A stretch of DNA of 62,396 bases, the filler included, from Collodictyon triciliatum (taxonomy: Eukaryota): NCBI GenBank assembly GCA_043381765.1. It is 13 parts of 13 records of this genome, joined end to end, with 100 filler letters (N's around TTAATTAATTAA, not from the genome) between each part and the next. Parts side by side here need not be neighbours in the genome. Positions count along the whole stretch, not along the records: positions 4,997 to 9,891 come from JBHJMP010005668.1; 12 more parts are not named here. One strand, written 5' to 3'. The translations under genes were made by a program, and so were the position numbers. This document shows, one piece after another, positions 2,652 to 48,500 of the stretch. Position 1 is the stretch's first letter. Every line of letters begins with the position of its first letter. The notes under the pieces were generated by a model. It ran no database searches. It saw only the letters and a list, made by a program, of their open reading frames with translations, and was not told the origin of the DNA.

Positions 2652-4870
2652 ATGGGGGATATTGTGTCGCACTTTGCCTCTGCCTCCAAAGCACAGAAAC
2701 TTGTTGTGGTGTTTCTCCCCTGGAAGTTCTTGGGCAAAGCACTTCGACTCATCAAGTAAGTCGCTGTCCTTGTGCCTTTTTGTCCTTTGCCGCCCTAGTT
2801 ATTATAAGATGCTTTTTGTAAGCGACAAAGGAATAAATAATAAATAATAATAATAAATGTTGTTTTAATGGGCCACTCCCACCAAAAAAAAATTATATTT
2901 TGTTGCTATACAAGTAAGAGAGTGTGGCACAGAAGCTATTGCTGCAATCACAAGTTAAAAAATACCACTGTATCTATTTAGATATTTCATAACTCAGGTA
3001 TCACGGCAAGAAGCTTCCACCAGAAGTATTCACCTACTTGCCATACGGACTTGACAGCATTTTTGTGACATTATTATGTAATTCAAACTCAATTATTCAC
3101 AAATATAATATCTTTCCCTTTTCTTCTCTTTTGAAAAGAAATAAATAAGTAAATAAATAAAAGGACTTGTCTACAGGCACTTTGATTTTCTCGCGTGACT
3201 GACTTTCCTTTCGTACACCTGTTAGACGAGCTGACCAACCCTACGGAAAATTTGAAAGATTGAGGCAGACTTATGGAAACACATACAGATACGATCTCCT
3301 CGGTCGCTCACGAGTCACTGTTTTCGACCCATCTTCCGTGCAACACTTCCTGGCCAAAAACTGGGAAAACTACGAGAAAGGACCCTTTTTTATGTATGAA
3401 TGAAAGCTTATTATTTACAACCTTTTTTTTTTAGTTTAACTTGCCAACGCGTTTAAAATTTATATTATCTCGAAGGGATAGAAGTTCAATATCACGAATA
3501 ATCTGTATTCAATAGTGAGTCCTTTTATTCTCTCCTCGGACGCGGTATCTTCAATGTAAATGGGTATGTGACACATAATTTGCTTTGTACCTTTTATGTA
3601 TATTCTCGTTTTGAGTCATCTTAAGGTGACTAACTTTGCCACAAAAAATATAAAGAGAAGAGCGGAGATTTCATCGCCAAACTGCTCGCCCTCATTTTCA
3701 GAAGGTAACAGTAATTCTAGTAAACGATATTATTACATCATGATTGGCGTATCCATATGTAGATATACACAAAAAAATATTAATTTTACACTAACACTAC
3801 CATACATAGGTTGAGTTGGGAACTATGGTCCCTACATTCATTAAACATGCAAACTACCTGCTACACTATTTGGAATCGTCTTCATCTGATGGAGACGTGA
3901 TTGACGTTCAGGACATTTTTTTCAGGTTACAATTGTAAACACTGCAATCATAAGCATCTCTCTGATATTGAATTATGCATGTTAAGAATAACTCATTATC
4001 ACTCTTTTCTACCATATTTATAAATTTGCGCGTTCACTCTCTATAAACTAGATTCACCATGGATAGCGTTGGTGACGTTCTGTTTGGACACAACATTGTT
4101 TCCCTCAATACACCCAACGCATTTGCAAGGGCTTTTGATACAGCGCAGAAGCTGAGTATTACAAGAACATTGATACATCCTCTTTGGAAATATCTTTCAT
4201 CCCCAAAATTTGATGAAAATATTGCGATTATTCAAAATTTCGTAGAAAAGGTCATCCCTGATATTTTTATGATTGGTTTTAGTATCTCTAAAATTAAATT
4301 TCGTCTCAATTCATATGTTTTGTGAATGTAAAAATAAACCTTTTCCCCCAGGTTGCAGACCAAAGTATCGCCGACCCAAGGCTCAGCGAAAGACAAGATT
4401 TGCTCGCAGAATATGTCAAATCAGGGCCAACACCTACAAGGTTAGTGTCTTTCCTAAAAGAAAAATGGATTTCATTATCATCACAGCCTCTTTGAATAAT
4501 ATAATTTCTCGAGTTTTTTTTTTAAAAAAATGAATACCATAGGCTAGAGACTTTAAGTCTGTGACATTTGCATAGGGATTATTTGAAAGACATGTTGAGC
4601 AACATGCTTATTGCTGGGCGCGATACAACTGCTGTTCTGCTTACTTGGTTCTTCTACGAGTTGTCCTTCCACCCGAACGTCGAAGCTCGCGTGGTTGCTG
4701 AAATAGACTAAGTTATCGGTATGACAATATGAAGCTCGCCCTCATCATGTCAAACTCCCTGCATCAATATCTATATTCTCTCGGGCGTAATCATCATCTT
4801 GCATTTCAGGTGATGAGCTTCCGTCTGCTGACAAGCTCGATAGCCTCCGTTACCTCAAGAATGTCTGTCC
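2652..4870 (+). pseudogene. Cytochrome P450 (CYP52/CYP86/CYP704-like); multi-exon, in-frame TAA at 4709-4711, truncated by contig end
   Basis: Spliced translation gives DPSSVQHFLAKNWENYEKG, LLGRGIFNVNG, DVQDIFFRFTMDS, I-helix IAGRDTTAVLLTW, EID*VIG and LRYLKN. The WxxxR motif reads RRFHR. Confidence 0.8.
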
Positions 4871-4896: not shown

Positions 4897-4996
4897 NNNN
4901 NNNNNNNNNNNNNNNNNNNNNNNNNNNNNNNNNNNNNNNNTTAATTAATTAANNNNNNNNNNNNNNNNNNNNNNNNNNNNNNNNNNNNNNNNNNNN
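4897..4996. other. Artificial contig linker N44-TTAATTAATTAA-N44; also at 9892, 14884, 19873, 24861, 29849, 34837, 39820, 44805, 49784, 54785 and 59768
   Basis: The same 100-nt spacer, with stops in all six frames, recurs about every 5 kb. Confidence 0.98.
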
Positions 4997-7900
4997 GGCG
5001 GATCGACTCGATTGGAAATGGGAATCTTCAGGTGCATCCGAAGTATGGATGGGAGATGTGTATGACATTTGATGTCTCCACACGAACGATTCGGGTACGC
5101 AGCGGTTGCTATATCTGTATTAGTCCATATTGTACAAACGAGTTATGAATAAGCTCATTTGAAATTACGATTGTAATTTATTTGAAGGTTGACGCAGTCA
5201 CTGGGACATTCTATTTTACGGGTATGTCTATTCAAAAATCGTGGATAGTCGGTAGCATTCCTCTCAGTGGACTCGGTATGTCTCATGTATCGCCTGATTG
5301 GAGTTACACGATAATATCTGGTGTCAGGAAAGGTAAGCTTCATGAAATTTTATGTGGCCTTCTTTTAAAAACAACTGAATACTCGATTATTGATGATTCT
5401 ACGTCGACCATTAGAATACATGACTTTCATGGAATTTAAATCAAGTGCCTCTAATGAAGAACTGGGCGGAGGAGATGATAGCGATTATGACCCAAATGTT
5501 GTTGATTTCTTCGTTCCGCAAGGTTTTTCAATCTCTATTCTTGTGGTTTGCTATTTGCTGTAACATTTTCAGCATCCAAGGTCTCCAGAAAGTAGACTTA
5601 CCAAAAGAAATAAAATAAAAAAAAAAACATCAGGAGCTGACCAGACTACTATTTTGGACTCATGGGACAAAGCGGCTCAGATGATTGCATTTGCCCCTGC
5701 TGTTGGCTCAAAAGTGCACTATCTGACATCAGATTACATATTCAAGGTTTTTTTTTTTTTTTGCTCAACATTATAAAGATAAAATCGTACTTAACGTCGC
5801 GATATTTCTGAACTTACTCTATTTGAACCAGGATTCTAGTAACGACGAATATGGTTCTTATCCTTTGTCGGATGTGTTCTACCCTAAAAAAGGTTTTTTT
5901 TTCCTGCGTTACATTCGTATCATTTTTCCATGATTGTATATGTACTGAATCTGTTGTTGAAATGATATGAAACACTTTTTTAGGCCTGTTTGACCTGCAA
6001 TACATATCGGTCCAGCATGACGATGAGTTTGTGTACCTTAGTGCCAATGTTATCAATATGGCAACAAAGGTGGAGACCGAGAATGGGATGGGCTTACTGG
6101 GCATTCAAATTTATGTCGACACTGACCGAGTATGGTCGAGTGGGTGCACCCAGGCGTATTTGAATCCTGGACTCCAAATGAGTCCTTTCTATGCCTGGGA
6201 GTTTGCAGCTCATGTCACCGCAATTGACTCGGCACTACTACTGTCCGGTGGACAAGATACTTACAATGTTACTACCGAAGTTGATGCGCACGCAGAAGGG
6301 AATGCCGTTGTGATTAAGATTCCGATATCTATTGTTGGCACTCCAAACTCCAACTGGAACTACGTTGTTGTCAGTGGCTCCGTCGTCAACAACAAAGGAA
6401 AGGTAATCACTCCTTCACATACTATAATGACTCGTAATTTCATATTTGGATGTGGTTCACTACAAATCTCAACTCATGCCATCGGCTGGTATCCTTAATA
6501 TGCTTCTATGTCCTTCAGTCAGCATTCAGCTTGAGAAACTCCGACCCGAGTGCATTCGAGTTCGGCGGAGGAGACGCCTGCGACTACGACCCCAACATTT
6601 CAGACATCATACTGCCGCCTTCAGTAGACCAGGAGAAGATGTTCAAGTCCTTCAGCATGATGAGGTCATCCATCCAAACAATCATGTGCCATAGATTCGT
6701 CAAGAAAACTTTACAACCTAAAGGGTAGCTTCCGTGACTCTATTGATTTCAAAATCTAGGAGGCGATATCCTGAAGTCAGTCCCGTTGGCGCATTGATAA
6801 ACTATGGGTACTCAACGTGGGGACAAAAGGACTCGCAGAGCGATGAGCGAGGAGTGTATCCCACAAACTTTCCTAAGGCATGCTACACCGATACAAGACA
6901 ACTTGAAGATACAAATACTTCTTTTCCTTTTTTTTCGGATATGAGCTTCCGTATTGGAATCATCAATATCGAAACGATTCATGGCTGTCTTGCATTTCCT
7001 TTGTTTTGTTGACGGCTTTCTCTTTCTCTTTTTCTTTATTTTTTTCCCATAGACCCGCGGACTTTTCGATATGGTGTATTTCCAGGTGGGGTCTTTCCAG
7101 ACAAAGCTCTGGGTACGCATCAGCATGAGCAACATGGTCACATCGAACCCGTCCCAAAGCGCATTCGACCACACCCTGATTAGTGTCTACATCAACACCA
7201 AGGCGGGAGCTGCGGGCTCGCAAGAAGTAAACACATCAGCACTAAAGAGCGATACAAAGCGGCTGTGATATATCCATGTTTTGGTTTGATTATGACTTGT
7301 AGGGACTTGTGCAAAGGCGGTGATTAAAACGAGTTTATTTTTGACAAGGTTATGGGTAACGGACAGTTCAAGCTGGAGGCAGGATACAAATGGCAATATG
7401 CGATGCTCATCAATGGCGAAGGAGTCAGTGTATATGAGTACGACCCCAAGAAGAGAAGCAGCTACAAGGTACCAAACAAACAGGCCGTGAATATGCATAT
7501 ATTTTATTCTCCATACCTTTGTATTTGCTTTTTTTGGTCATGGCTATAATGATTTTTTGTTTTATTCTATTACTTGGCGCACACACACAGACGCTATCGG
7601 TCGACTCTCATGTACGGCGGGACGGAAAGACGATTGTTGCAGAAGTCGACTGGGCGATGCTTCCAGAGCTGGATGTGTATTGGAGCTATGTGGTAGTAGC
7701 TGGTGAGTAAACATAAGAGCACATGCATATGTATGTGTGTATGCAGAGTCAAAGTGTATTGGATATGAATTCCGCGATGACGATATGTGTGAATAGGGGG
7801 GCACCAAAGCAGCAACAAGCTTGTGTATTGCAGTGTCAACAAGAATGCCGGGAACGATATGTTCGGAGGCGGAGCGGACGGGGATTTCGACAGCAACGTC

Positions 7901-9755
7901 GTGGACATACTCACACGACCAGGAACGTCACAGAATGAGGCAAGTCGAAAGGATTTGATATATGTAGCTGTGAACAAGCCTATGGCTTACTCCAAACGAT
8001 TATGTCGGTCTTTGATGCGTTTTTAGTATTTTATAGAATAGCTGATGATATGTGTACATGTAGGTACTTGGAGATTTCTCAGAATCGGAAAAGAAGAGCG
8101 TAGTAATTGGAAAGGTCGGAGGCAGTGTGTACGAAAAAATCTATGATGCGGTGGACATGATTGGAGACGAGTTTGGAAGCTACCCGAACGCACCGATATT
8201 TAAGGGAACGAAAACGAAGGGATGGATGGACCTCAGCGGGTTCTCGATTCAACGGAACGCCACACACGCCGAAATCGATGTTTCGTTCGCAAAAGCTCTT
8301 GAAAATCCTTTAAAATTTCGATATGGATTTAGCTTTCCTATTGTCACTGTTTATACACATCAATCTTCTAGTGTGAGTATTTTTAATGCCTTTATTATCT
8401 GATGAATGCCATTTTTAAAATTCCTTTTGGTCGTATGGCTAGTTCTGAAACCACTTATTATATTCAACTGATTTGATTTCAAAGAAAACGCTCACCTTAT
8501 TCTAACTGGCATCGAAAAATAGAAATCTTTATCGCGACCCGTTGATTTATCTGGAGTGATGCTAGAATCTCCCTGGGTTACTAATATCAGGGCATCGGGA
8601 AATAATCTGCGAGTTCAGTATTCTGACCCTCGCCCGATTATGTCTCTGTCAGCGTTAAATGCGAGCCAAATAGCCCAAGTTTCCAAGATAAATGATACAT
8701 CTATTCGCGTAAGTGCTCATACGCTGTATACTTTGTTAAAACATTTGCTTCTGAATAAATCTCACATTTTCTTTAAAAAAAATTAGTAAAATTAAATTAT
8801 TTTGTTATCTTTTTGGCCTCGCCAGGTCTCCATCATGATTGAAGGGTTTGGTGACCCGGACGAACAGTGGAGCTACACAGTGATGTCCGGGCTGTACAAC
8901 TTAGAGAACGACGACTTTGTCTTACGAAATGCGCAATCTTCATACGTGAGCCACTATATATCTGGTTTAACATGATTACAATTCTGCTAATTAAAAATCC
9001 ATACCTTTTCTAATGCAAGCGATTCCTTGGTGGTGGTGAGGATGAAGACTTCGACCCAAATGTTGTGGATATCCTTTTCCCCGACAATACCCGAGTACTT
9101 GAACTCAAGGTTTGTTTCTTAGTAAAATTTCTTTTGTCCTTATTGCCATTATGTTTTCGCATGAAATAGAGGCAATAAAAGAATTTTTTTTTTTTTAGAA
9201 ATCAGGAGTAGATATTCAATCTTTGGTACTGAAGAGCTTCGACACAATCATGGAGAAGCGAGCTCTTGTTCCTTCTGTTGGAAGTCAACGCAGCTTCGAC
9301 TTTTCTCAGTATCCGCAAGAATGTACGGCCATCGAAATCAACACAGAGTTTTTTTTTTATTGCAATCTTACTATGTAGTATAGTCTGTTTAAATCATTGT
9401 CAATCACTAAATTGGTCATCTCGATTTTTACTCGTCCACCAGATACGAAGAAATGTGAGTCTAGCATTCATGTTACATTTCTAGTAAATTAAATTTCTCC
9501 TTTTTATATTTTATTACTATTAGTTATTTACCTCAATTCTTCTTGAATATAGCATCAAGCAAGGATAACGGAGCTCTTATTGGTGGCGTGGTTGGCGGCG
9601 TGGTTGGCTTCATTTTTGTTGTCGCCCTATTCATCGGACTCCGATATCGAAAGAAGCTTCAGGTAATGGAGAAAAAAGAAAAGCAATTGTTTGTTCATGT
9701 GGAATACGGAGACCTCGACTTCGGAAAACATCTCGGCTCGGGTAGTTTTGGTGAT
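4997..9755 (+). CDS. Receptor-like TKL kinase fragment: at least 4 tandem glucodextranase-C/DOMON-like ectodomain repeats, single TM helix, start of kinase domain
   Basis: Repeat motifs DxxxDExGxYP (~5832, ~6830, ~8155) and GGGxxxDYDPNVVD (~5465, ~6564, ~7865, ~9029). TM segment GALIGGVVGGVVGFIFVVALFIGL followed by RYRKK, then kinase subdomain I LDFGKHLGSGSFGD. Both ends are cut by contig limits. Confidence 0.72.
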
Positions 9756-9792
9756 GTGAGTTTTTTTATATATTTATTTTATTTATTTATAT

Positions 9793-9891
9793 ATACATAC
9801 ATACATACATACATACATACATACATACATACATACATACATACATACATACATACATACATACATACATACATACATACATACATACATA
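9793..9891. repeat. (ATAC)n microsatellite; another copy at 17493-17610
   Basis: Direct reading. Confidence 0.95.
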
Positions 9892-9991
9892 NNNNNNNNN
9901 NNNNNNNNNNNNNNNNNNNNNNNNNNNNNNNNNNNTTAATTAATTAANNNNNNNNNNNNNNNNNNNNNNNNNNNNNNNNNNNNNNNNNNNN

Positions 9992-13509: not shown

Positions 13510-14370
13510 CTGAATTGCGGAGCTCTTTGCAGCATCGGTCATGCACCTCCGAATCCGCTCCAGCATCCCAACCACACTCTCCATATTCCAATCACACATC
13601 GCCTCTTCGAAGCATGCTCGGGTGAGGTCTGCATATTAAGCATCGCGGTCGTGGGAAGCGGAGCCAAGTTTTTGCAGAAGCGGATAAGCCGGACAACCTG
13701 GAGTGCGGGCATCGAGCTGAACGGTCTCCATTGTCCAGAGCTCCCAGATGATGACATCCGTGCCGAAGACATCCGCCTTTTCGTTGGACTTTTCCCTGCA
13801 GTTTTAATGTTATGGTGGGTAGATTTTTGTTTCTTTTGTTTTTTCCTTTATTTACTGAATTGGGAATGTGATGGAGTAAGGCTGATGACACCTGAAACAA
13901 AACAAAAAACAATCGGGATATACCTGTCTATAAAAAAGCATCAGCGACCCAGCACGGCGTGCCAATCGTCCCGTTCGAAAAGGATGAATTTCGCTTGACC
14001 TTGTTCATTCCAAAATACGCCACTTTGGCAGCCCGGTTTTCTGTCAATCTGTTTATGAGTCCAGTGTGAAAAAAAAGCAGAAATAATGTTTTAAAACGAG
14101 TTATGATTCATAAAAAAAACATGTTTGACGATTTCAGGTCTCGGCGAATCATGTGCAGTTTTTTCTTACGTGCAAATAGCTGACATACAACGATACATCA
14201 AAGGCGACGTGCAATCTGTGCGAAGAGAGGCAAAGGCGGGCGGTGGTTTTTTATGGTACCGTTGAGAGAACCTCGAGCACAGAATTCCATGACGATACAC
14301 AAGTCATGAAGCTCTATCCACGCACCCATAAACAGACAAACATCCGGACGTCTCGAGTGGCTATGTGCGG
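13510..14370 (-). pseudogene. TKL-family protein kinase pseudogene with introns
   Basis: Exon remnants RRPDVCLFMGAWIELHDLCIVMEFCAR, RLHVAFDVSLYVSYLH, AKVAYFGMNK...GTPCWVADA (DFG changed to YFG, APE to ADA) and EKADVFGTDVIIWELWT, followed by a frameshift. Confidence 0.75.
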
Positions 14371-15239
14371 TGTTTCTTAAATTTTATCACACGCTTACTT
14401 ACATAATTTGGTTTATAAAACGATGAGTTGAACAAATATAATTCCTTCAGGAAGCATTTTGAATTTTGTCCACGAATGCAATAAGGGGTTTGCAATAATG
14501 GGGAAAAAACATCAAATGTGTTTTTGGTATATCTTGCGAGTTAAAAACGCAAAGAAATTTAGACTTCTGCTCGAAATTCTCGGACTAGCTACTTTGATGG
14601 ATGTTGTGAGAAGAGCTTCTAAATCGCAACCTCTGTTCCACGATACCATCCTTGGTAAACCTGGCCGATTTGATGACAGATAAGTTGGGCATGGCGAATT
14701 GGTCTTTACTTTGTTTCGACACACAAATTATATTTACATGAAATATCTGGTTAAGTTTTGGTGAAATATTTGGCGAAATCATCCCGCCCTCCTCTGAATG
14801 ATTCGACGATAAATGGACATTTGTTAGTGGTGCTCATAGCTAGGCTGATGGCTTAACAAAATTTTTAGTCTCAGTTTTCTCGTNNNNNNNNNNNNNNNNN
14901 NNNNNNNNNNNNNNNNNNNNNNNNNNNTTAATTAATTAANNNNNNNNNNNNNNNNNNNNNNNNNNNNNNNNNNNNNNNNNNNNAAAAGAAAAAAGAAAAA
15001 AGAAAAAAGAAAAAAGAAAAAAGAAAAAAGAAAAAAGAAAAAAGAAAAAAGAAAAAAGAAAAAAGAAAAAAGAAAAAAGAAAAAAGAAAAAAGAAAAAGA
15101 AAAAGAAAAAGAAAAAGAAAAAGAAAAAGAAAAAGAAAAAGAAAAAGAAAAAGAAAAAGAAAAAGAAAAGAAAAGAAAAAAAGAAAAGAAAAAAAGAAAA
15201 GAAACACAAAGAAAAGAAAAAGAAACAAAAAGAAGGTTA

Positions 15240-45526: not shown

Positions 45527-48500
45527 ATGAGTGTTGATCTGAGCCCGTACCGCGTCTTTGGGGTGTATGTCTTCCGCAACGACACGTCCGCACAGATTGC
45601 ACAAAGCCGAAGCCCTGCGAATGTGACTCCCGCTCAAACAGCGCCGGGCACGCCGTCCTCGGCTCAGCTCTTGGTGTTTGGCCAGGGCGATACGCTCCAC
45701 GCTGCCGTCAGCCACACGCCCGAGACAGCAGATGAAGCGCTGCTGCGTCCTTCGAATCAGGCAGCACAACACAGGTCGCTGCATGTGCAGTCTGCTTCGC
45801 CTCCGCTGATAACAAAAGGTTAATCCCTTTTCTCCTGTCCCACTTCATTTCTTTTAATGCATGCCGACATGATAGACATTGAATATATATACAAGGTGTT
45901 GTTGCTTGTTGCTTTGTCTTATATGTAAGAGAAACTAGGTGATACGTAAACTGATGTCAATATTTTCTTTTATCTTTGTACCGTAACGCTCATAGTTATT
46001 TTCTGATTTATCCGCTTGTTGTTTATTTAAGTTATTTCCCCTAGTTTGTGTGGTATTGATAAACATCAGGTGTATTTGTTGGCTTCATTGCTATTCATAA
46101 GCATACCATTTTGTATTATATCTAGTAATATTCCATCGCAATGATATTCTCGACCGAATTGATGGGCTCTTAAACTCCTTGAACCACGAGAAGCTAGTCC
46201 AAGTTCAACTGGATGACATATTTTCTCAAAGTGATTTTTTATATTATATGCACATACATCATGAACACGTACATCTTGTTGTCATTCTATATGAAGAAAT
46301 AAATTAATTCCTCAGATATTCGTAATTTACAATCTTATATCCCTAATTTTTTTAGATAAAAAAATTCTAACATCATATGGTTCATGGGTATTTATTAACA
46401 AGTTTTATAATATGATTTTCTTCAAAGTATGAACCAAGAAAAAAAAAAGGAGATTGTTTCTTCAAACACTAGCATTGATTACATATTGAAAGATTTTTCA
46501 GACAAGTTATGTAATTACTGAACCTAATATGTTTTTCGATATCGCTTTGAAAACCGCAAACAAGGTCGAGTTCTTTGCCAACGAACATGTGACCATCGGA
46601 GCCACACTTAGTCAAGGAGTTAACATAATGTAGGTTAAGCTTGAGTCATATTCTAGTATTTTTAGCGACTCTATTACTTTCCTATAAATATATATTTTCC
46701 TCTTTTACAAATTTCTTTTCATAGAGTTCTAGTGTTGTCGGACAGAGGATGCTCAACTATAAAAAATCGCACTTCTAAGCTGATGAGGTATTCTATTTGA
46801 TGATAATACGATGCAGTATTTTTCAACTCAACAATTATGATCAACTTCTCAACAATTTTAATTACTTAATCATCATATATTTAATCTTATAATCCATTTT
46901 TAACNNNNNNNNNNNNNNNNNNNNNNNNNNNNNNNNNNNNNNNNNNNNNNNNNNNNNNNNNNNNNNNNNNNNNNNNNNNNNNNNNNNNNNNNNNNNNNNN
47001 NNNNNNNNNNNNNNNNNNNNNNNNNNNNNNNNNNNNNNNNNNNNNNNNNNNNNNNNNNNNNNNNNNNNNNNNNNNNNNNNNNNNNNNNNNNNNNNNNNNN
47101 NNNNNNNNNNNNNNNNNNNNNNNNNNNNNNNNNNNNNNNNNNNNNNNNNNNNNNNNNNNNNNNNNNNNNNNNNNNNNNNNNNNNNNNNNNNNNNNNNNNN
47201 NNNNNNNNNNNNNNNNNNNNNNNNNNNNNNNNNNNNNNNNNNNNNNNNNNNNNNNNNNNNNNNNNNNNNNNNNNNNNNNNNNNNNNNNNNNNNNNNNNNN
47301 NNNNNNNNNNNNNNNNNNNNNNNNNNNNNNNNNNNNNNNNNNNNNNNNNNNNNNNNNNNNNNNNNNNNNNNNNNNNNNNNNNNNNNNNNNNNNNNNNNNN
47401 NNNNNNNNNNNNNNNNNNNNNNNNTTTTTTTTATCATAATAGAACTTTAGACTCAGAGCTCAGAGATACAACACAAAGAGTACCATCGTATCGAGATTTG
47501 AATAAGTGTTCTGATAGGTGCTTAGGTACAAATCATTCAAAATCACCTAATTTATGTTGCTGTGGTAACTTATCACCTTTTGTGACTAGTTATATGTCGA
47601 AGATATATATCTTCCAGCGCAATATATACAATCAATGGTGCTCACATCGCAAATTTATGGTCTTGTATATTGGAGATTATATCAGATTACATATCGAATT
47701 GGAGTTCAAGTTTTCTGAAGTGCTTCCTCATCACCATATTGCTTTGACGAACGAGCACTCTCTTGAATCGGATAGACCGCTATCTATGATATCTGATCTG
47801 GCGGATAAAGTGAGTTTTCTTTGGAAGTTCGATGTATCTTGAATAAAAAATAGATAAGTAAATAGGTAATAAATGAGCCAGTAAATTGATAAATAACCCA
47901 ATAAGTTAATGAATAAGCCAATAAATATTAAATAGACAAAACTGTACCTCAATCATCTTTAGCTGAATTCTATAGCTCGACCAATCACAAAAAGATTAAT
48001 CAGTGCATTTATCATTCAACGAATAAATATTCAATTTGAAACGTTTCCACACAGCTCCGTATACTAGGTATTTGGCCAAAAGATTCCTTCTGGCCAACAA
48101 CGGCGGATATGAGCCCACAATTTCATGAATCGGGCTCTTGGAGATTACAAAACTCTGTTGCCACAACAACTGTGTGTTTATTCATATAGTTATATCATTC
48201 GCAGCAGCCTGAGAAAATTATCGATATTTAAAAGTGACCACTGAAGCAACACATGCTTGACTCAATCCAATTCACAATATTTATCCACCTTTACGATTGA
48301 AATTCACAACACCGCACTCATTAGATCCAGTACAATTTATCTGATTATGCCTTATCACTTCGAACAGAATACTTTAGTCGTGAAAGAGACCCTGTAAGTA
48401 TGGTGTCACTAAAAATTATGTGCAATTGGATAATGTGGCGAATATCGCCCACGGATGTAAAATTCCCTTTAATATTTAACTTACTGATGACATGTGCAAT

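Follow-up and report, generated by a model that had tools for sequence, protein, structure and literature searches.

In plants, glycan-sensing receptor kinases such as the LysM receptor-like kinases (RLKs), the malectin-like and leucine-rich repeat (LRR)-malectin kinases and the lectin RLKs carry carbohydrate-type modules outside the cell, one transmembrane (TM) helix, and a kinase of the tyrosine kinase-like (TKL) group inside. Plants rely centrally on receptor kinases with carbohydrate-binding ectodomains for immunity and symbiosis; the food sensing of free-living predatory protists is almost unstudied. We analyzed a 62,396-nt stretch of DNA from Collodictyon triciliatum (assembly GCA_043381765.1; positions 1-62396, here called the window) and describe a gene on its plus strand, at positions 4999 to 9755, which very probably encodes a receptor with tandem extracellular Glucodextran_C modules (Pfam family PF09985), a single TM helix, and a cytoplasmic kinase. 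Its layout follows the same logic as that of the plant glycan receptors, but the ectodomain belongs to another family, and the kinase appears to fall into the Raf/MLK-like branch (CTR1, EDR1, STY) rather than into the IRAK/Pelle branch of the plant RLKs. As the host, in addition, is a flagellate of the CRuMs, an orphan deep-branching lineage, the receptor would have arisen independently of the plant RLKs.

The closest described counterpart of the module is domain C of the glucodextranase of Arthrobacter globiformis (Protein Data Bank [PDB] entry 1UG9), which has the Pfam family and the fold in common with the receptor modules. In the bacterial GH15 enzyme the domain is present in one copy at the C-terminus, whereas the receptor has six copies in tandem, no glycosidase domain, and a eukaryotic TM kinase. 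Other α-glucan enzymes with Glucodextran_C (the GH57 proteins P0004 and P0011, the GH13-type proteins P0006 and P0017, and the GH65 enzyme MdDDE) likewise carry the same module singly on a catalytic domain and have no TM-kinase part. Fold neighbors of the modules are carbohydrate-binding module (CBM) 74 of Ruminococcus bromii Sas6 (PDB entries 7UWU, 7UWV, and 7UWW) and CBM9, which belong to different families with 9 to 10% sequence identity; the common fold does not mean a common function. The nearest counterpart of the gene as a whole is transcript TRINITY_DN156_c0_g1 of Diphylleia rotans, a colinear orthologue or old paralogue that agrees with it in module order, in three intron positions, and in the TM and juxtamembrane segments. 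A module otherwise known from prokaryotic α-glucan enzymes and surface proteins thus forms the whole ectodomain of a TM kinase in two CRuMs species. The original prediction, made from the sequence of this stretch, had known of no description of the architecture, and we found no description of it in the literature searched, which lay outside subscription journals and InterPro architectures. Receptor kinases of the glycan type are already known and the orthologous transcript is public; the Glucodextran_C ectodomain appears to be undescribed.

We consider it probable that the locus is a nuclear gene of a D. rotans relative encoding a type I single-pass receptor kinase, with an ectodomain that may be of prokaryotic origin and may bind a polysaccharide. 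Judged from P0018, the protein deduced from the D. rotans transcript, the full-length receptor would consist of a signal peptide, six Glucodextran_C modules, a stalk, a TM helix, a juxtamembrane segment, and a TKL-group kinase. Of these parts, the window contains an incomplete module 3, modules 4 to 6, and all that follows as far as the glycine loop of the kinase.

Glucodextran_C modules, their fold and their origin

Frame reading combined with colinearity with P0018 led to a spliced model of 19 exons that is open at both ends (Table 1). All 18 internal acceptors are AG, the 5′ edge of exon 1 being the contig end, and the donors comprise 17 GT and two GC. The 18 putative introns have lengths of 74 to 175 nt, in line with the intron-rich gene that had been proposed from the unspliced sequence. 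A candidate microexon of 12 nt (9443-9454) is flanked by AG and GTGAGT and keeps the frame; it is uncertain, because the model stays open without it too. The model runs through 933 aa without a stop and contains on the plus strand every motif that the original prediction had listed, including three copies each of G[LW].D[LM] and W.Y.V.

To identify the modules, 17 stop-to-stop frames of the plus strand were scanned against Pfam, in which PF09985 has a gathering score of 22 bits. Six frames matched this family at E ≤ 1 and the other 11 did not. Four of the six exceeded the gathering score, the best one with an E value of 2e-12, and frame 7793-8023 remained under the cut-off (Table 1). An independent profile of 243 positions, built from only 10 prokaryote-type Glucodextran_C domains with D. 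rotans protein P0006 left out, recognized four modules in the spliced model (independent E values [i-E] of 4.2e-24 to 5.6e-49) and six in P0018; none of 50 shuffled models gave a match with this profile at E ≤ 10. Of the "at least four repeats of roughly 200 aa" announced previously, the number therefore holds for four modules, but these are three complete ones and the C-terminal two-thirds of a fourth, and each is about 230 aa long. Pairwise identity among the modules of the window is 25 to 30% over more than 130 aligned residues, with one local alignment reaching 44% over 93 residues. NCBIfam contained no model for the module. In the ESM Atlas, 16 of 30 feature matches were clusters with the Pfam family PF09985, and the three shown were listed as bacterial.

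Table 1. Coordinates of the receptor gene, its parts and its contig, counted along the window
Feature	Position	Strand	Basis or remark
Spliced model, 19 exons, 2799 nt, 933 aa, 0 stops, both ends open	4999..9755	+	Frame reading and colinearity with P0018; inferred splice sites
Exons 1-10	4999-5094, 5188-5332, 5415-5522, 5634-5746, 5832-5892, 5984-6402, 6519-6664, 6760-6877, 7053-7226, 7349-7468	+	
Exons 11-19	7591-7702, 7797-7939, 8064-8372, 8523-8708, 8826-8945, 9020-9109, 9199-9322, 9443-9454, 9553-9755	+	
Putative GC-AG intron, donor GCATGC	6878..7052	+	Only frame-keeping junction giving the spacing of P0018 (after P0018 residue 973)
Putative GC-AG intron, donor GCAAGT	7940..8063	+	Same position as the intron-retention point of D. 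rotans isoform P0019
Partial module, repeat 3, N-terminal third lost at contig end	4999..5740	+	i-E 4.2e-24, profile positions 89-239 of 243
Complete module, repeat 4	5741..6820	+	PF09985 47.6 bits (frame 5971-6495) and 27.4 bits (frame 6438-6725); i-E 5.6e-49
Complete module, repeat 5	6821..8135	+	PF09985 24.3 bits (frame 7053-7265) and 17.8 bits (frame 7793-8023); i-E 6.6e-36
Complete module, repeat 6, most divergent	8136..9312	+	PF09985 30.6 bits (frame 8064-8399); i-E 4.2e-25
Motif GGG..D.D.N..D, four copies	5465-5506, 6564-6605, 7865-7906, 9029-9070	+	Spliced model
Motif D...DE.G.YP, three copies	5832-5864, 6830-6862, 8154-8186	+	Spliced model
Short Ser/Lys-rich stalk, including the possible microexon	9313..9572	+	Spliced model
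Single TM helix, then basic RYRKK stop-transfer stretch	~9573..9641	+	Hydropathy, model residues 871-889, mean 2.08; aligns with the TM helix of P0018
Cytoplasmic juxtamembrane segment	9642..9734	+	Aligned to P0018 1466-1499; tblastn 57% identity over 42 aa
Start of protein kinase domain, glycine-rich loop GSGSFG-D (GSGSFG at 9735-9752)	9735..9755	+	Exon ends at a GTGAGT donor
Start of next intron, running into a (TACA)n microsatellite (~9790-9891)	9756..9891	+	Sequence reading; contig breaks there
Gene-bearing contig, entire (4895 bp)	4997..9891	+	Linkers on both sides

The fold was predicted with AlphaFold2 for repeat 4 of P0018 from an alignment of 11 rows (pLDDT 64.8, pTM 0.73). When this model was compared with the PDB by Foldseek, a single match was obtained at E ≤ 0.001, namely, 1UG9 (E 1.1e-8). 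VIA-align superimposed the model on residues 776-1017 of 1UG9 with Z 18.6 and a root mean square deviation (rmsd) of 3.3 Å over 205 aligned residues. Only two of 1000 chains reached Z ≥ 8, 1UG9 and then residues 238-538 of Sas6 (7UWU_B, Z 10.0); lower neighbors included 4JPQ (Z 7.6) and CBM9 (Z 6.7 to 7.0). A 140-aa exon of the window itself (5983-6402), which covers part of a domain, was predicted with pLDDT 74.6 and had 1UG9 at the top as well (Z 10.9, rmsd 2.9 Å, 130 aligned residues), as the sole chain of 998 with Z ≥ 8; CBM74 of Sas6 followed with Z 7.3 to 7.4. Sequence identity to 1UG9 is 15 to 21%. With domain C of 1UG9 on top for both models, the modules are predicted to have the β-sandwich fold of this domain, and the Glucodextran_C/DOMON-like identity suggested by the original prediction agrees with the PF09985 scores, the 10-domain profile, and the predicted fold.

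To find relatives of the ectodomain, 1.84 billion protein representatives were scanned by HMMER (phmmer) with the 140-aa exon. The scan yielded 16 proteins at E ≤ 0.001, with P0001, a D. rotans open reading frame (ORF) from EukProt, at the top (E 2.1e-51). PF09985 is present in 13 of these relatives and was not found in P0002, P0009, and P0013. One more D. rotans protein, P0006, was among the matches, and the other 11 relatives with PF09985 are metagenomic sequences, in part from metagenome-assembled genomes (MAGs), with prokaryote-type architectures (GH57, PEGA, Big_7, FlgD_ig, and PMT_2). Nine of these 11 (all except P0007 and P0015) were looked up; one was named, a MAG "glucodextranase DOMON-like domain-containing protein." Catalytic domains of α-glucan enzymes occur in four relatives, as GH57 in P0004 and P0011 and as α-amylase (GH13 type) in P0006 and P0017. 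Among 7999 candidates scored in a search with P0001, only P0001 itself and a single bacterial protein matched, and a word-indexed search for longer proteins containing the exon gave no matches. As a side observation, the Big_7-containing, enzyme-free proteins P0010, P0014, and P0016 terminate with a P/N-G-F/Y motif that is followed by a hydrophobic helix and a basic tail, an arrangement which we take to resemble the archaeal PGF-CTERM sorting signal.

The D. rotans protein P0006 (891 aa) has a signal-like N-terminus followed by PF09985, CBM_48, and the catalytic and C-terminal domains of an α-amylase. Its enzyme part is of the GH13 type, nearest to the TreZ and GlgB models, under their cut-offs, and the protein is predicted to be secreted. 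P0006 is a possible source of the receptor's module or a sibling to it, or else a contaminant of the transcriptome.

An unrooted tree was calculated for 22 module sequences, comprising the six modules of P0018, the four of the window, P0006, and 11 prokaryote-type sequences; P0002, P0009, and P0013, which lack the domain, and P0017 were left out. Repeats 3, 4, 5, and 6 of the window paired with the same-numbered D. rotans repeats with supports of 99/99, 100/99, 100/100, and 100/100, respectively, and the paths between different repeats were much longer than those between same-numbered ones. This one-to-one pairing indicates that the array of six modules was already in place when the two species diverged. 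The 11 Diphyllatea modules were separated from the 11 prokaryote-type rows by one branch (support 56/76, 52% of the bootstrap trees), and P0006 grouped weakly with the receptor modules. These data are compatible with one acquisition followed by internal duplication. Horizontal acquisition, as proposed originally, is plausible in view of the prokaryote-type architectures of all other relatives found. The only eukaryotic members among the 1.84 billion representatives, as far as one exon and phmmer reach, were those of D. rotans, and the economical interpretation is that prokaryotes passed the module to this lineage.

Diphylleia rotans transcript and the kinase

P0018 (1633 aa) is the longer isoform in the P0001 cluster and belongs to transcript TRINITY_DN156_c0_g1 in the EukProt data set EP00002 of D. 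rotans (Collodictyonidae, CRuMs). In public data it appears as a transcriptome ORF without annotation, and the cluster representative is labeled with PF09985 alone. In P0018, PF09985 matched in six stretches with a total of 444.7 bits. A simple hydropathy scan revealed an N-terminal hydrophobic segment at residues 6-24, a putative signal peptide, and a TM-like helix at residues 1445-1463. The latter is followed by a match to PF07714 (PK_Tyr_Ser-Thr) at residues 1493-1602 with 77.3 bits, covering profile positions 1-115 of 258, with the motif VAVK at residue 1517. As this one ORF carries the modules, the TM helix, and the kinase N-lobe, the sister species has an mRNA in which the ectodomain is linked to the TM helix and the kinase, and the proposal that the repeats and the TM/kinase exon belong to one gene was borne out for the family.

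The window model aligned with residues 572-1506 of P0018 in one piece, with 46% identity, 64% positives, and 30 gap positions in 949 columns, and the alignment extends through the TM helix and the juxtamembrane segment into the glycine loop. In the window species, the joint between ectodomain, TM helix, and kinase is thus suggested by colinearity and by splice sites that are in phase. The single TM helix expected after the repeats was present as a hydrophobic helix followed by RYRKK (Table 1). The TKL-like glycine-rich loop of the original prediction could be recovered as GSGSFG, and the kinase of P0018 appears to be TKL-like, but the window holds only the first ~7 residues of subdomain I. The last frame of the gene accordingly matched no kinase family of Pfam at E ≤ 1, the portion of the domain contained in it being too small.

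The type of kinase was deduced from P0018. Against the PDB, its N-lobe matched CTR1 first (4.8e-23), followed by KSR2, TNNI3K, MLK4, MLK1, RAF, and ZAK, as judged from the best 60 of 902 sequences at E ≤ 0.001. In the protein database, the neighbors were TM kinases of D. rotans and then the plant Raf-like kinases EDR1/STY (49 matches in 1481 candidates). By these sequence comparisons, the kinase would be TKL-like and nearest to the Raf/MLK-like branch. Among the kinases of this kind, D. rotans P0022 combines a TM helix and a small Cys-rich ectodomain with a TKL kinase and a Guanylate_cyc domain (23.0 bits; cut-off 21.9 bits), P0021 of the same species has a TM helix and two kinase domains, and P0023 of the amoebozoan Stenamoeba stenopodia combines kinase, cyclase, and kinase.

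Putative introns of the window model lie after the equivalents of P0018 residues 1153, 1320, and 1360, which are the exact positions of three events that distinguish the D. rotans isoforms: the divergence of P0019, a 21-residue insertion in P0001, and the point at which P0001 diverges and stops. All three events thus coincide with introns of the model (three of its 18 introns). The read-through peptides start with Val, as a GTN donor would give according to our reading. From these two observations, the truncated ORFs P0001 and P0019 are most simply explained as products of intron retention and not as soluble isoforms. All three isoforms are truncated by apparent read-through, P0018 within the N-lobe.

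Ligand and alternative explanations

In the mechanism that we propose, the module would have been taken from prokaryotes, in which it accompanies α-glucan enzymes of families GH15, GH57, GH13, and GH65 as well as archaeal-type surface proteins, and would then have increased in copy number and become fused to a TM-TKL kinase already present in the host. The ectodomain would bind an extended polysaccharide, for which the best single guess is an α-glucan such as starch, glycogen, or dextran from food organisms. A multivalent ligand of this type would cluster the receptors and thereby turn the kinase on, a step extrapolated from single-pass receptor kinases in general. Both Diphylleia and Collodictyon live in fresh water and prey on algae and cyanobacteria. 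For a glycan as the ligand we consider the chances to be evenly balanced, and for an α-glucan in particular the suggestion is tentative. Similarly speculative is the wider scenario, in which phagotrophic CRuMs flagellates captured a prokaryotic polysaccharide module, brought it to six copies, and obtained a receptor for food or prey polysaccharides by coupling it to a TKL kinase of the Raf/MLK-like type and perhaps also to a cyclase.

Four lines of evidence led us to suggest polysaccharide binding: the module sits on GH57, GH13, GH15, and GH65 α-glucan enzymes in prokaryotes; the GH13-type enzyme P0006 of D. rotans carries it at the N-terminus; the next fold neighbor after 1UG9 is the starch-binding CBM74; and deletion of the domain in MdDDE had kinetic effects. 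According to the report on Sas6, CBM74 comprises residues 242-572, so that the Sas6 match of the 1UG9-like module falls inside it, and binds single and double α-glucan (starch) helices (bioRxiv 10.1101/2022.11.20.514607). For the GH65 enzyme MdDDE, altered kinetics upon deletion of Glucodextran_C have been reported, and the authors suggest a recognition of the α-glucan chain (PMC10074034).

If the ligand is a glucan, Glucodextran_C would have its first role in sensing and its first proof of sugar binding. The gene would then also be a clean case in which a transferred module was amplified and fused, and would offer a testable way into prey and food recognition in Diphyllatea. A receptor for prey polysaccharides would mean that glycan-sensing receptor kinases were invented independently, in parallel to plants. 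If it is no glycan sensor, the gene would be a curiosity of domain architecture.

Several observations weigh against the preferred explanation. The ectodomain gave no phmmer match to PDB sequences at E ≤ 1, so that the link to 1UG9 rests on profile and fold, and the confidence of the AlphaFold2 model of the full module is middling. The single origin of the Diphyllatea modules has weak support (56/76) in an unrooted tree with only 11 prokaryote-type rows. The splice sites, the two GC donors, and the 12-nt microexon are putative, and at 46% identity P0018 might be an old paralogue and not an orthologue in the strict sense. On the kinase side, the window contributes ~7 residues and the match of P0018 stops at profile position 115; the HRD and DFG motifs were not found in P0018, both falling past the ends of the contig and of the transcript ORF, and the kinase may be a pseudokinase. 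The paralogue P0022 continues past the kinase into a cyclase domain. Regarding the ligand, no member of Glucodextran_C has been demonstrated to bind sugar and the domain is not a recognized CBM, as stated in the MdDDE publication (PMC10074034). Furthermore, the relatives P0003, P0010, P0012, P0014, and P0016 have PEGA or Big_7 or nothing beside the module and a hydrophobic anchor at the end.

These last two points, the missing proof of sugar binding and the enzyme-free anchored relatives, also speak for the alternative that survives best, according to which the architecture is the same and the modules form a rigid stalk or an adhesion array or bind a noncarbohydrate ligand, i.e., a protein or a cell-surface polymer. 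Pfam moreover names PF09985 "SLH-like," and the most conserved motifs (D.D and GGG..D.D.N..D) look as if they were structural or metal-binding loops and not a specificity site. On the other hand, 1UG9 is followed among the fold neighbors by proteins that bind carbohydrates (CBM74, CBM9, and a putative carbohydrate-binding protein), the module recurs beside α-glucan enzymes, one of them in D. rotans itself, and the kinetics reported for MdDDE hint at α-glucan recognition (PMC10074034). We regard this alternative as a serious one that is nevertheless unlikely.

A second alternative, which is compatible with a polysaccharide receptor, concerns the output. As a cyclase or another kinase follows in the D. 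rotans paralogues, the output may exceed a kinase, and the protein could be a receptor cyclase with a kinase-homology domain, have a second kinase, or both. The closest kinases found are P0022, with its Guanylate_cyc domain, and P0021, with its two kinases, P0023 of Stenamoeba has a kinase-cyclase-kinase order, and P0018 ends inside the N-lobe in apparent read-through sequence, but P0018 is only 41 to 50% identical to P0022 and P0021 over the N-lobe. We judge such an output to be rather improbable.

Two further explanations carry very little weight. The contig is short and comes from a highly fragmented assembly, the other members of the family are prokaryotic, and the repeats might in principle stem from a prokaryotic contaminant or a misassembly and the TM/kinase exon from another gene. 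The coding sequence, however, contains 18 short introns, which have AG acceptors and either GT or GC donors, and is unreadable as a single prokaryotic ORF, the same fusion is present in an independent transcriptome, that of D. rotans, with intron positions common to both species, and the TM exon lies 98 to 230 nt downstream of the preceding exons on the same strand and in phase. The introns and the independent transcript come close to refuting a prokaryotic contaminant or chimera. A redox-sensing receptor with haem-binding DOMON domains, suggested by the γ subunit of ethylbenzene dehydrogenase (EBDH; 2IVF_C, Z 7.4) and the cytochrome domain of cellobiose dehydrogenase (CDH; Z 6.1 to 6.2) among the fold neighbors of repeat 4, was rejected as equally improbable, because these scores are far under that of 1UG9 and in the common range of VIA-align and because P0018 and the exons matched PF09985 only and no haem-type DOMON or EB_dh family of Pfam.

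Contig and remainder of the window

The window consists of contigs of ~4.9 kb strung together, with an N44-TTAATTAATTAA-N44 linker between each pair (4897-4996, 9892-9991, 14884-14983, and onward) and one gap of 520 N at 46905-47424. The receptor gene fills exactly one contig bounded by linkers; the rest of the window therefore does not represent its genomic neighbors, and adjacency has no genomic meaning. The gene is truncated at both contig ends, and the contig corresponds to its 3′ two-thirds. The break of the assembly after the glycine-loop exon is likely due to the intronic (TACA)n microsatellite. When P0018 was searched against the window by tblastn, the 5′ half of the receptor gene and the remainder of the kinase were not found. 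When metagenomes were scanned with the last exon, 520 pattern matches were obtained, but not one could be confirmed.

On a separate contig (9992-14883), the minus strand contains a distant protein kinase-like coding stretch at 13931-14353 with 25 to 28% identity to TKL kinases of D. rotans and 39.5% identity over 43 aa to P0018. This stretch is unrelated and is not the missing part of the receptor gene.

Eighteen of 19 sequencing runs contained part of the stretch; the top shares were 0.38 and 0.25 (two small runs, guessed to be RNA), which is evidence of neither expression nor habitat. In the first contig, a plus-strand frame at 4565-4711 contains an AGRDTT-type motif, presumably part of a cytochrome P450-like stretch.

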